Positions 1,340-16,539 of a DNA stretch of 64,000 bases are shown here, piece by piece. Position numbers and translations under genes: made by a program. The notes under the pieces are model-generated. The model did not search any database. It was not told the DNA's origin and saw only the letters and a program-made list of their open reading frames with translations. The first letter of the stretch is position 1. Every line of letters begins with the position of its first letter. The DNA lies in NCBI GenBank assembly GCA_021738485.1, contig JAIPBX010000001.1, positions 4,702 through 68,701 of the forward strand. Direction: 5' to 3'. Origin of the DNA: Bacteroidales bacterium (lineage in GTDB: Bacteria; Bacteroidota; Bacteroidia; Bacteroidales; JAIPAH01).

Positions 1340-1601
1340 GATTATTTAAGTTTGATTTCCGTTAAAATAACAAATTTTATTCCGAAAAGGTGGTGAGATT
1401 TTGGATTAAATTTTTTAATTGGTGGATGGTTTCAGTCGGGCTTAGATCTACCTGCATCCGGTAATGCCGCCGATTAAAATCACATCTTTGCGCAGCAAGA
1501 GGCGTTTCATACAAAAAAACCGCTGGCTCTCACACCCCATTACAAAGCTCCGGGAGGTCTCTCGCTTCGCTCGAAAACCGTATTGGTGTAAATGAGGAGG
1601 C

Positions 1602-1638
1602 CCCCGCCCGTACCGAATGCCGGTACATTCGGGCGGGG
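1602..1638. repeat. GC-rich palindromic hairpin mini-element (CCCCGCCCG...CGGGCGGGG)
   Basis: The 9-nt arms ccccgcccg (1602..1610) and cgggcgggg (1630..1638) are perfectly complementary. The inner part taccgaatgccggtacatt can form alternative stems. It is a reverse-complement relative of the insert at 11534..11565. Confidence 0.8.
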
Positions 1639-2025
1639 ACCTCCCAATTTATCGTAATGCGTTTAGCAACAATGCCTTGAACCAAATCCTCGGAAGTGTC
1701 GACTGAAGCGCGCCCTTATCGAATCCACGAATCTTCGGGATTAGGGAGGGGATCTCCCAATTTACCGTAATACGACCGGCAAAAATGATTTAAACCACAA
1801 TCCCAAGTGCAACGATTAAAGCCCGCCCGAATCCCAAGGCATTGGGGGTTAATTACAAATGGTAAAAATACATAGCTTTTCCAAAAAAATAATAATGGAA
1901 TCAAATTATCGATCATGAGCGCCCTTTTTAAAAAAGCTTGAAGTTTTTCAAACAAGATTCTACAGCAAAGTTGCTTTGTCAATAAAAAATAATTAACTTT
2001 GGCGTTAGTAACGTAATGCGTAATT

Positions 2026-10880: not shown

Positions 10881-10988
10881 TGCTGTACAATTTGAAAGTG
10901 ACGTTTACATACTGTACAAAGATAATGTATTTTAGTGCAAAAAGAAAGGGCGTTTTGAGCAAGGGAATACATTGAAAAGCATGAAAAG

Positions 10989-11075
10989 TAGCCCCGCCAG
11001 GACTCCCCGCCCGAACTACTGACGTCATTCAGTCGGGCAGGGAACCTGGATCTAAGGTTTAGGAAACCTCTATTC
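10989..11075 (-). pseudogene. 3' fragment of tRNA-Arg(CCT) (nt 22 to discriminator) carrying a T-loop hairpin insert
   Basis: The reverse complement is GAATAGAGGTTTCCTAAACCTTAGATCCAGGTTC[36-nt insert]GAGTCCTGGCGGGGCTA. It is collinear with the intact gene from G22 onward. The first 6 nt overlap the stop of the GIY-YIG ORF. Confidence 0.8.
11006..11041. repeat. GC-rich hairpin mini-element, subtype B, in the T-loop of the tRNA-Arg fragment
   Basis: The sequence cccgcccgaactactgacgtcattcagtcgggcagg is inserted between the C and G that are adjacent in the intact gene (ggactc|gaacc). Confidence 0.8.
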
Positions 11076-11318
11076 TTTCTTAATCTTTTTAGTTAAATAC
11101 CTTCTACCGGCGGCAGTCTTAAAATATTTTTCACGCTTTATTGCTTCTTGCCGGGTTGAAAAAACCTCATAATAATATAACTTCCACGGTATAAAAGCTT
11201 TTGTGGATTTTGTCTTTCCTTTGTTATGCTCATCAATCCGGTCTTCCAGGTTTTCACAATGACCTTTGTAATATCTTTTATGGCTCCGACTATATAAAAC
11301 ATATGCATAGAAAGGCAT
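11070..11318 (-). CDS. small GIY-YIG nuclease family protein (UPF0213-like)
   Basis: 82 aa. FYAYVLYS...YYKGHCENLEDRIDEHN...EAIKREKYFK carries the GIY / YIG / R / E motif series. It starts 19 nt downstream of tRNA-Arg on the same strand. Confidence 0.8.
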   Translation of the reverse strand: MPFYAYVLYSRSHKRYYKGHCENLEDRIDEHNKGKTKSTKAFIPWKLYYYEVFSTRQEAIKREKYFKTAAGRRYLTKKIKKE

Positions 11319-11337
11319 ATCGGGTTAGTTTTATTAG

Positions 11338-11409
11338 TAGCCCCGCCAGGACTCGAACCTGGATCAAAGGTTTAGGAAACCTCTATTCTATCCCTTGAAC
11401 TACGGGGCC
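11338..11409 (-). tRNA. tRNA-Arg (anticodon CCT)
   Basis: The reverse complement GGCCCCGTAGTTCAAGGGATAGAATAGAGGTTTCCTAAACCTTTGATCCAGGTTCGAGTCCTGGCGGGGCTA gives a 72-nt cloverleaf. The anticodon loop is TTCCTAA and the T-loop is TTCGAGT. Confidence 0.9.
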
Positions 11410-11533
11410 AAATTTTTACGTAAAATTAAGAACTTTTGCTAGCAACCTTAAGATCTGCTATTTCTTATCGTTACCTTACCTGGATTCTTTTACTCAAACC
11501 TGGTAAAGTATTTAACAAATCCCGCCAGGACTC

Positions 11534-11565
11534 CCCGCCCGAACGTACCGTTCGGTACGGGCGGG
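11534..11565. repeat. GC-rich hairpin mini-element, subtype A, in the T-loop
   Basis: The sequence cccgcccgaacgtaccgttcggtacgggcggg has perfect 8-nt terminal arms. It sits at the same C|G site as 11006..11041. Confidence 0.8.
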
Positions 11566-11599
11566 GAACCTGGATCAAAGGTTTAGGAAACCTCTATTC

Positions 11600-11635
11600 C
11601 CTGCCCGAACGACTGATGTCATTCAGTCGGGCGGG
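11600..11635. repeat. GC-rich hairpin mini-element, subtype B, at the D-loop/D-stem junction
   Basis: The sequence cctgcccgaacgactgatgtcattcagtcgggcggg is near-identical to 11006..11041. It is inserted between ctctattc and tatccc. Confidence 0.8.
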
Positions 11636-11716
11636 TATCCCTTGAACTACGGGGCCAAATTGGCGCTGCAAAATTCTAAAAAATATCGCGCTAATGCAAG
11701 CGACCTTATGGTTTAT

Positions 11717-15800: not shown

Positions 15801-16080
15801 TTTTTGAAAGTGTAGTATCAAATGAATAGTTTTTTCGTCATGTTAAGGTCGTGTTAAGGTAAATTTTTTCTTCTGCTTCGATTGTTTTAATATATTTCGA
15901 GCCATAGTAAGGATAATTAAAATCTATTATCTCCACTGCTATCAAGCCACAAGACAGGTGATTAAGATTAACAAATCATAGAACCAAGTGGAGCAGAAAC
16001 CACTATAAAAACTGAGCGATACCGAAAAGCTTTATGAGTAGGATAACCAAATACCATTTATTCACTTAAAATCAATTATT

Positions 16081-16539
16081 ATGAGAACATTAGGTAACAT
16101 TTTGTGGCATGTGCCCTTTTTAGGATTCTTAAATGCACTGGGAACCTTTCTTATCGGGGGATTATTTGTTATAACAGTAATTGGAGCTCCAATAGGCTTA
16201 GGCCTAATACAGTTATCAAAATTTTTGTTGACTCCTTTCTCAAGCGGAATGATTAATAAAAAAGACCTTAATGCAGAACAAAACCAGGCATGGCAAACTT
16301 TTGGGATAATAGTTAGAATTCTTTATTTCCCCTTTGGATTATTATTGGCTGTTGTGACAGTTTTCCAAATTGCAGGCCTTTTTGTTACAATTGTTGGAAT
16401 CCCGGTAGCATTAGTATTGGCTAAATCATTAAGTACCTTCTTTAATCCTGTAAACAAAACTTGCGTTTCCAAAGCAGTGGCTGATGAAGTAGCTTCCAGA
16501 AAAGCAAAAGCCGAGGTTGATAGGGCGTTTGCTAAATAA
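16081..16539 (+). CDS. yccF: YccF-domain inner membrane protein
   Basis: NILWHVPFLGFLNALGTFLIGGLFVITVIGAPIGLGLIQLSKF is followed by a second repeat, IVGIPVALVLAKS. This is the typical DUF307/YccF pattern. Confidence 0.8.
   Translation: MRTLGNILWHVPFLGFLNALGTFLIGGLFVITVIGAPIGLGLIQLSKFLLTPFSSGMINKKDLNAEQNQAWQTFGIIVRILYFPFGLLLAVVTVFQIAGLFVTIVGIPVALVLAKSLSTFFNPVNKTCVSKAVADEVASRKAKAEVDRAFAK

Follow-up and report, generated by a model that had tools for sequence, protein, structure and literature searches.

The closest described analogue of the DNA element considered here is provided by the repetitive extragenic palindromic (REP) and REPIN sequences which, together with their REP-associated tyrosine transposases (RAYT), form so-called REPtrons. 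REP families are species-specific. A terminal GTAG (or CGTC) tag is a defining feature of REP sequences (PMC3733652). The Slx1-like/UPF0213 GIY-YIG proteins are likewise a described family, whose bacterial members were left without a demonstrated function by a 2006 survey (PMC1564403). Here we analysed a 64,000-nt stretch of DNA from a Bacteroidales bacterium (GCA_021738485.1, contig JAIPBX010000001.1, positions 4,702 to 68,701), referred to as the window throughout, in which a 686-bp non-coding spacer (1340-2025) separates two divergent genes and carries a bulged GC hairpin. On balance, this spacer probably holds a solo, non-autonomous miniature palindromic insertion element that inserted there, was duplicated in tandem and subsequently decayed.

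The intact copy of the element is located at 1603-1637 on the minus strand and reads CCCGCCC-GAAT-GTACCG-GCATT-CGGTAC-GGGCGGG, a perfect stem of 8+6 bp with a 4-nt bulge on one side only. It is recognised by pattern match as well as by a covariance model, R1 (54.2 bits, E = 2e-10), which was built from 21 family variants and run unfiltered over the whole window; four copies are found in this way and nothing else rises above noise. BLAST matches the hairpin to more than 100 foreign copies. As the earlier note on this DNA had claimed, it is the reverse-orientation relative of a second copy at 11534-11565 (58.8 bits). The hairpin is flanked by an imperfect stem, whose left arm (CGTATT..GTAAAT..GGAGG) occupies 1580-1600 and whose right arm occupies 1640-1660, i.e. 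the first 21 nt of a 60-nt unit termed unit 1 (both plus strand; fold and duplex energy). This stem comprises 18 bp in three helices of 6, 6 and 5 bp and includes the pairing of ggagg (1596-1600) with cctcc (1640-1644) that had been noticed before. The 141-nt fold of 1560-1700 reaches -56.3 kcal/mol (z = -4.8), and the flank duplex alone yields -20.9 kcal/mol compared to -11.1 ± 2.7 kcal/mol for shuffles (p ~0.001). When the element is removed in silico, the site folds to a hairpin whose 4-nt loop is bisected by the junction (CC^GA). The element hence sits mid-loop in a significant pre-existing stem, as had been proposed.

Taken together, the hairpin and the sequence downstream of it appear to form about 2.3 head-to-tail copies of a block consisting of hairpin, 60-nt unit and linker, with a period of 106-113 nt, which are in decay. 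Copy A (1601-1710) contains the intact hairpin, unit 1 and a linker, and copy B (1711-1821) a decayed hairpin, unit 2 and a linker; both are given on the plus strand and follow from repeat finding and alignments. The two units, previously matched by eye, are similar well beyond chance (1626-1689 vs 1739-1803, local alignment score 56 vs 14.8 ± 2.2 for shuffles, maximum 24), and repeat finding by self-alignment returns 58 nt of 78% identity at a spacing of 113. The alignment of the units is ungapped and starts 13 nt inside the 3' arm of the hairpin (ATTCGGGCGGGGACCTCCC vs ATTAGGGAGGGGATCTCCC, 16/19). A second diagonal, 7 nt out of register, connects 1605-1633 with 1711-1739 (29 nt, 72%, offset 106), and MAFFT aligns 1709-1751 to the intact hairpin, the only gap being 7 nt long and corresponding to a local duplication (CTTCGGG/ATTAGGG). 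Aligned in this manner, the decayed hairpin of copy B (1709-1751, plus strand) reads CGCGCCC..TTATCGAATCCACGAATCTTCGGG, followed by the 7-nt duplication ATTAGGG and by AGGGG. Copies A and B are identical at 73/108 positions over 110 nt, with 26/36 (72%) in the hairpin part and 47/72 (65%) in the remainder. In semi-global alignments against 2000 shuffles, which underlie the alignment z-scores for the array, the hairpin region matches 1700-1753 with z = 4.4 (p ~0.0025), and the tails after the units (1676-1740 vs 1790-1860), which include the 5' arm of the next hairpin, align with z = 7.2. The 5' arms in these tails, AAGCGCGCCC and AAGCCCGCCC, share the junction between linker and arm. A truncated copy C (CCCGCCCGAATCCCAAGGCATTGGGGG; 1822-1848, plus strand), supported by pattern, repeats and alignments, keeps its 5' arm intact, while the rest is degenerate. 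The copies thus lie head-to-tail and are similar over the whole period, as is characteristic of tandem repeats. On 1300-2100, Tandem Repeats Finder reports nothing because the identity of the copies is under its range (below ~70%).

Two short matches had been listed in the earlier note as half-copies of the hairpin. The first, cccgcccgaa at 1822-1831, is indeed the start of a further copy, i.e. the truncated copy C, and belongs to the tandem series instead of being a separate landing. The second, ttcagtcgggc at 1431-1441 (plus strand), exactly matches over 11 nt the 3' half (TTCAGTCGGGC) of the second hairpin subtype at 11600-11635, with ~0.03 matches expected per given 11-mer in 64 kb. It is a possible remnant; around 1431-1441 there is no support for a full copy and the covariance model gives no score.

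Three further family members are found in a tRNA-Arg(CCT) cluster at about 11 kb. On the minus strand, this cluster (10989-11660) consists, in order, of a pseudo-copy with two hairpins, the intact tRNA-Arg(CCT), a GIY-YIG open reading frame (ORF) and a 3' partial copy with a hairpin. The pseudo-copy, a full-length look-alike of tRNA-Arg(CCT) at ~11656-11517 (minus strand), harbours the consensus-subtype element 11534-11565 (plus strand) in its T-loop and, in its D-loop, the element 11600-11635 with the inner stem GACTGA/TCAGTC (plus strand, 39.5 bits). The third element (11006-11041, plus strand, 36.8 bits) occupies the T-loop of the 3' partial duplicate (~11075-10989, minus strand) downstream of the GIY-YIG gene, whose stop codon TAG falls inside this partial copy (GAATAGAGG). 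The intact tRNA-Arg(CCT) at 11337-11409 (minus strand; ARAGORN, Rfam tRNA 62.5 bits) serves as hairpin-free paralogue. Excising exactly 11534-11565 and 11600-11635 yields a 72-nt tRNA-Arg(CCT) that is recognised by ARAGORN, with one junction in the D-loop after nt 21 (GGATA^GAAT) and the other in the T-loop after nt 55 (GGTTC^GAGTCC). Compared with the paralogue, no base is gained or lost at these junctions, and all three tRNA-Arg insertions proceeded with neither duplication nor deletion of the target. Since precise excision restores the tRNA, the hairpins are genuine insertions, in agreement with the earlier note. The restored pseudo-copy has a defective acceptor stem and adjoins the intact tRNA-Arg.

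Given these observations, the history of the array can be pictured in three steps, the order of which we infer from the alignments. The element would have entered an existing imperfect stem-loop of 18 bp, midway through its tetraloop and without target duplication; a block of ~110 bp, made up of hairpin, 60 nt and linker, would then have been duplicated in tandem to ~2.3 copies; and the downstream copies would have decayed via substitutions, the 7-nt slippage duplication and truncation. The resulting array presumably has no host function. As such, it is a solo mobile hairpin within a decaying tandem duplication and is ordinary in kind.

Beyond the window, the element belongs to a family with a nearly invariant 32-nt core, CCCGCCC-GAAC-GTACCG-TT-CGGTAC-GGGCGGG (CCCGCCCGAACGTACCGTTCGGTACGGGCGGG). 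Its members measure 32-36 nt: an outer stem of 7 bp (CCCGCCC/GGGCGGG) is separated by a 4-nt bulge on one side (GAAY) from an inner stem of 6 bp, which closes a small loop. The inner stem covaries with pairing kept (GTACCG/CGGTAC, GACTGA/TCAGTC, GGCCGA/TCGGTC). An exact 23-base pattern, GCCCGAAYGTACCG-N2-8-CGGTACGGGC, scanned in a collection of species-representative genomes, occurs in more than 118 genome stretches among the matches listed, which is a lower bound, and the core is almost unchanged in them. Hosts include Bacteroidota, many Patescibacteria lineages, Planctomycetota (Scalindua), Bdellovibrionales and one metagenome-assembled genome (MAG) of Gammaproteobacteria, as well as the isolates Lacibacter sp. 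MH-610, Cecembia lonarensis LW9, Mesonia profundi MT50 and Winogradskyella sp. A3E31; several MAGs contain many copies per genome. An assembly or binning artefact is ruled out by copies inside long contigs and in isolate genomes. The specific pattern is found in 0 of 2.9 million viral contigs and in no plasmid. A looser pattern (CCCCGCCCGAAY..GGGCGGGG) gave 25 matches in the viral contigs, all of which are an unrelated terminator-like hairpin of one phage group; in ~20 related phage contigs (L003-L024) this is a conserved 36-nt hairpin, CCCCGCCCGAACAGTGCGAAACCTAATCGGGCGGGG, at the same locus. Rfam 15 holds no model for the element: in the window only tRNA and DUF805 pass, over 10950-11700 only tRNA, and the best scores on the hairpin (mir-642 and mraW, 30 and 23 bits) compare with cut-offs of 90 and 50. 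In the full-text literature, with most subscription journals outside it, neither the element nor its association with GIY-YIG genes and tRNA was found described. The element family and its nuclease association look new.

To characterise the target, 100 non-redundant insertion sites were compared. T is found at -2 in 66% (p = 7e-16) and A at +2 in 56% (p = 9e-10) against a background of 27%. About one fifth of the sites are tRNA-like, mostly at D-loop A21^G22 or T-loop C56^G57 and some at 9/10, and both orientations are found at one tRNA D-loop position, an indication that insertion takes place at the DNA level. The family inserts precisely, without target duplication and in either orientation, at T-N^N-A. 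The flanks are more complementary than those of random sites in the same loci (-7.24 vs -5.74 kcal/mol, z = -4.7), and a strong flank duplex (at or below -12 kcal/mol) is present at 17% of sites vs 5% of random sites, whereas junctions lie in a predicted hairpin loop at 22% of sites and 26.5% of random positions. Because there is no such enrichment in loops, the structural target preference proposed in the earlier note holds only as an effect of a family subset, to which the copy 1603-1637 belongs. The sequence preference T-N^N-A is the stronger of the two.

The copies persist only in dispensable DNA. Excising the hairpin from the 118 foreign loci restored no complete tRNA, the hosts there being fragments. 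Apart from tRNA, a 5S-rRNA-like sequence is interrupted by the hairpin in an Antarcticibacterium MAG and a Moraniibacteriota MAG (loci L100, ~161-314, and L122, 640-671; for example ...AGCGCCGA[element]TGGTAG...). Several Bacteroidota MAGs (L101, L113, L037, L069, L096, L132) carry the hairpin within short-period tandem arrays (repeat length 6-8 nt, for example GACTGNN, CTCACT and CAATGCAA) that extend to either side of the element. In Scalindua/Planctomycetota (L038, L047, L071, L095, L106, L118) it is central to a larger repeat, ..AATTGAGCGATTTGTG[element]TAAGCCGCCCCCATTCC.., which is present in several copies and both orientations with conserved flanks.

A small nuclease gene is associated with the family. 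In the window it is located at 11070-11318 (minus strand) between the hairpin-bearing tRNA fragments and encodes an 82-aa stand-alone Slx1-like GIY-YIG protein (Pfam PF01541, 7.7e-14), the only GIY-YIG gene in the window. It has a minimal GIY-YIG domain and no extra domains, as do stand-alone Slx1-like/UPF0213 proteins of about 80-100 aa; the protein-family profile matches the UPF0213 structures 1zg2 (3e-14) and 1ywl (6e-14) as well as SLX1 (1e-5), and NCBIfam provides no name for it. Among 143 hairpins, 23 lie within 400 nt of a GIY-YIG ORF, and small GIY-YIG proteins are the sole enriched family among the ORFs within 1 kb of them (22 ORFs, 20 loci); no cluster of transposase ORFs, Y1 included, is found within this distance. 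The reverse comparison started from 80 metagenome loci picked by protein-family similarity alone. Of these, 15 have a match to the covariance model with E < 1e-3; the matches all lie no more than ~110 nt from an ORF end, in some loci at both ends, and hairpin variants missed by the model are seen by eye at the same positions. A tRNA gene lies on the ORF strand in 37 of the first 60 such loci, in many cases directly abutting the ORF. In the recurrent layout, the ORF stands beside an intact tRNA, and on its other side a 5' or 3' partial tRNA duplicate carries the hairpin. Linkage of the element family to Slx1-like GIY-YIG genes and tRNA fragments is hence tight and reciprocal.

Some details of these loci may be added. 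In L148 and L153 (1501-1809), the GIY-YIG match ends at 1737, where tRNA-Arg(CCT) starts, i.e. the ORF end abuts the tRNA, and the tRNAs found by ARAGORN in GIY-YIG loci share the strand of the ORF. Locus L145 contains hairpin variants of 61-64 nt with an AT-rich loop of ~30 nt (1269-1394 and 1789-1914); to either side of the GIY-YIG ORF they form inverted pairs placed back to back.

Based on this linkage, we tentatively propose that the hairpin, the 80-aa UPF0213 GIY-YIG gene and the disrupted tRNA fragments might constitute an undescribed mobile system, in which the nuclease, as an enzyme specific for both structure and sequence, excises and inserts the 32-nt hairpin at T-N^N-A. By analogy, such a system would resemble RAYT with REP while employing GIY-YIG chemistry, and could extend over Bacteroidota, Patescibacteria, Planctomycetota and Bdellovibrionales. 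The nuclease encoded at 11070-11318 would be the trans-acting enzyme of hairpin movement, cutting the hairpin base or cruciform and the target sites, after which repair or ligation by the host would complete the insertion; solo copies such as 1603-1637 would then be non-autonomous progeny of the nuclease system.

Several points weigh against the reading put forward here. With regard to the array, the covariance model does not score 1709-1751 or 1822-1848 (E > 10), the homology of the decayed copies rests on a context-dependent alignment to the intact copy A (p ~0.002), and insertion and duplication are read from this one genome, the nearest homologue of the neighbouring protein sharing 49% identity. 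The foreign copies, more than 118 among the matches listed, were gathered with a pattern that allows no variation in the inner stem. Moreover, selfish DNA in decay would not usually stay nearly identical over a 32-mer in different phyla, which hints at constraint. As to the nuclease, the link is correlational: ~84% of the hairpins are not beside a GIY-YIG gene, and the copy 1603-1637 lies 9.4 kb from the only one in the window. GIY-YIG nucleases form no covalent intermediate, and they are not known to act as transposases.

Among the alternatives, the one that survives best, while still being unlikely, assumes REP-like elements that depend for their movement on a RAYT, a tyrosine transposase of the IS200/IS605 type, encoded at another locus; the association with GIY-YIG genes would then only reflect that hairpins and nuclease genes both gather in dispensable tRNA-fragment DNA. 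An imperfect palindrome of 32-36 nt with a strand-defining one-sided bulge, extragenic solo copies and no target duplication is REP-like (PMC3733652), and with four copies in 64 kb the size and repetition expected of REP sequences are found. However, neither the consensus CCCGCCCGAACGTACCGTTCGGTACGGGCGGG nor its flanks display GTAG or CGTC, the tag by which that study defines REP sequences, at either end. Within 1 kb of the 143 copies, small GIY-YIG genes are strongly enriched and no transposase-like ORF cluster is found, and in the protein-picked loci the hairpins keep close to the GIY-YIG ORF ends. Furthermore, a 32-mer that is nearly invariant across phyla differs from the species-specific REP families.

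A second alternative, which we regard as improbable, treats the three hairpin-like sites as independent insertions into a repeated target, i.e. as the landing pad suggested in the earlier note. The site preference of the family and the nested or adjacent copies seen elsewhere (L145, L150, L143) would be compatible with it. Yet between copies A and B the hairpin and the unit have diverged alike (72% and 65%) with the register kept, the degenerate copies share substitutions and the linker-to-arm junction, and copies that had arisen by recent, independent insertion should be as intact as 1603-1637. Because the hairpin segment is as similar between the units as the rest, the three sites seem, as far as alignment can tell, to follow from tandem duplication of a ~110-nt block and not from repeated landing.

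The surroundings of the spacer bear on a third alternative, namely that the array is a functional RNA of higBA or of the neighbouring transcript, acting as 5' leader, small RNA or processing/stability element. On the left, the spacer borders the N-terminus of an MG2/alpha-2-macroglobulin-like protein (minus strand, gene start 1339), whose closest database relative is the one with 49% identity mentioned above. On the right follow higB (2026-2304; PF05015, 1.4e-18) and higA (2318-2620; HTH_3). Within 1340-2025 there is no convincing ORF, no tRNA and no Rfam family, and a remnant of a GIY-YIG gene was sought in 1300-2100 without success. In favour of an RNA role, 1560-1700 folds far better than shuffles, the inner stem covaries, and a 13-nt motif from the unit reappears directly upstream of higB (12/13 matches). 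Such a role is nevertheless very improbable: a single tRNA D-loop site takes the element in either orientation, which favours recognition of DNA, no Rfam family matches, the copies further downstream are in decay, and 1690-1870 lacks structure (z = +0.5). Terminator-like sites number 0 in 1300-2100, and the hairpin 1603-1637 is followed by ACCTCCC; a rho-independent terminator was rejected since the stem-loop has no T-run. In addition, TAACTTTG at 1994-2001 (plus strand, 25 nt before the higB start) matches the -7 promoter consensus that is established for Bacteroidota. As this promoter-like sequence sits downstream of the array, the latter lies upstream of a candidate higBA promoter and is probably not part of the higBA leader.

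The recurring motif itself is TAACGTAATGCGT (2009-2021), directly before the higB start codon, which corresponds to TATCGTAATGCGT in unit 1 (1650-1662) and to CGTAATACG in unit 2. It could be a HigA operator-like sequence or chance, with a rough estimate of ~0.15 such matches in the spacer. No counterpart of the 60-nt unit occurs in metagenome contigs or in any fetched foreign hairpin locus, and an exact lookup of the HigB sequence matched no contig. Elsewhere in the window, a DUF805 RNA motif (Rfam RF03081, 71.6 bits) is present at 15983-16048, upstream of the ORF 16081-16539.

The remaining alternative, that unit 2 is an empty target site and unit 1 the same site filled by a 37-nt insertion, is the least probable of all: although the copy 1603-1637 does sit in the loop of a stem, whose left arm ...AAATGAGGAGG resembles ...GATTAGGGAGG before unit 2 at 7/11 positions, the unit alignment continues 13 nt into the hairpin arm, 1711-1739 matches the hairpin body at 72%, the left flank of the hairpin (1560-1600) finds no counterpart in 1700-1748 before unit 2 (z = -0.3), and unit 2 shows no flank complementarity (z ~ -0.3). 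The presence/absence polymorphism seen in the earlier note accordingly dissolves: unit 2 retains both degenerate arms, is a decayed copy with a 7-nt slippage duplication and lends no independent support to insertion. The small hairpin before it, gggag-gggat-ctccc (1744-1758), is not an empty target because it is built from the decayed 3' arm GGGAGGGG, which was formerly GGGCGGGG, aligns with the GGGCGGGG of the intact hairpin 3' arm and pairs with CTCCC. The note had itself named a hairpin-free unit without precise boundaries as speaking against its observation, and unit 2 is not precisely hairpin-free. Overall, its observation is confirmed in part and its interpretation is partly supported.

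In conclusion, when the spacer is read as an insertion that was duplicated and then decayed, a decayed paralogue had locally been misread as an empty site, and the locus illustrates how a palindromic insertion can travel as a passenger of tandem duplication. For annotation, it is relevant that the hairpins disrupt tRNA and 5S-like sequences and give rise to spurious ORFs (recurrent ...PARTERYVRAG...). On a larger scale, a 32-nt hairpin that is almost invariant over distant phyla marks redundant tRNA fragments beside small GIY-YIG genes. If the link to the nuclease is true, it would account for the frequent tRNA-adjacent genes annotated as "GIY-YIG nuclease family protein", would provide a testable function for the bacterial Slx1-like (UPF0213) proteins and would add a nuclease class to the few enzymes known to spread miniature palindromes.

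Compared with known systems, the family shares traits with several and coincides with none. Archaeal tRNA introns of the bulge-helix-bulge (BHB) type at non-canonical positions are likewise short D- and T-loop insertions that seemingly transposed between tRNA genes. They have a fixed orientation and are spliced by EndA from functional tRNAs, whereas both orientations occur here and all hosts inspected are redundant fragments or pseudo-copies beside an intact tRNA. A tRNA intron, be it archaeal BHB or group I, was rejected on these grounds, as both orientations are found and the hosts are pseudo-copies and not functional genes. Like Rickettsia palindromic elements (RPE) and miniature inverted-repeat transposable elements (MITE), the hairpins are small non-autonomous palindromes that form stable hairpins and can land inside genes, including RNA genes. 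RPEs and MITEs measure 100-150+ nt, and MITEs usually make target duplications and have a recognisable parent insertion sequence (IS); the present element, in contrast, spans 32-36 nt, has no IS parent and, although 7-bp inverted termini are present, makes no target-site duplication.

The mobile GC clusters and palindromic repeats of fungal and algal organelles are also very short GC-rich hairpins in AT-richer DNA at sequence-specific sites. Unlike the element described here, they are organellar and lineage-specific, and we know of no link between them and tRNA D- or T-loops or Slx1-like stand-alone nucleases. They are reported to co-reside with GIY-YIG/LAGLIDADG endonuclease genes (for example PMC7218506, PMC2670323). 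In phage T4, the free-standing GIY-YIG homing endonuclease gene segB is reported to lie among tRNA genes, with flanking tRNA partly duplicated or co-converted (PMC2330249). A GIY-YIG gene amid tRNA genes with partial tRNA duplication is found here as well; the Seg proteins, however, are larger than the minimal 80-aa UPF0213/Slx1-like domain and possess DNA-binding modules, and in contrast to phage segB the system here is cellular, as judged from its absence from the viral contigs, and has a dedicated hairpin.

The closest likeness remains that to REP sequences and REPtrons. The linked gene encodes an 80-aa Slx1-like GIY-YIG nuclease instead of a Y1 HUH transposase, and the element, unlike REP, is near-identical across phyla and frequent in tRNA-derived sequence. 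In common with REP, it is a short (20-40 nt) GC-rich imperfect palindrome that occurs as solo intergenic copies and makes no target duplication and, as in a REPtron, a small nuclease gene is flanked by hairpin copies in loci L184, L151 and L144 as well as in the window studied here.

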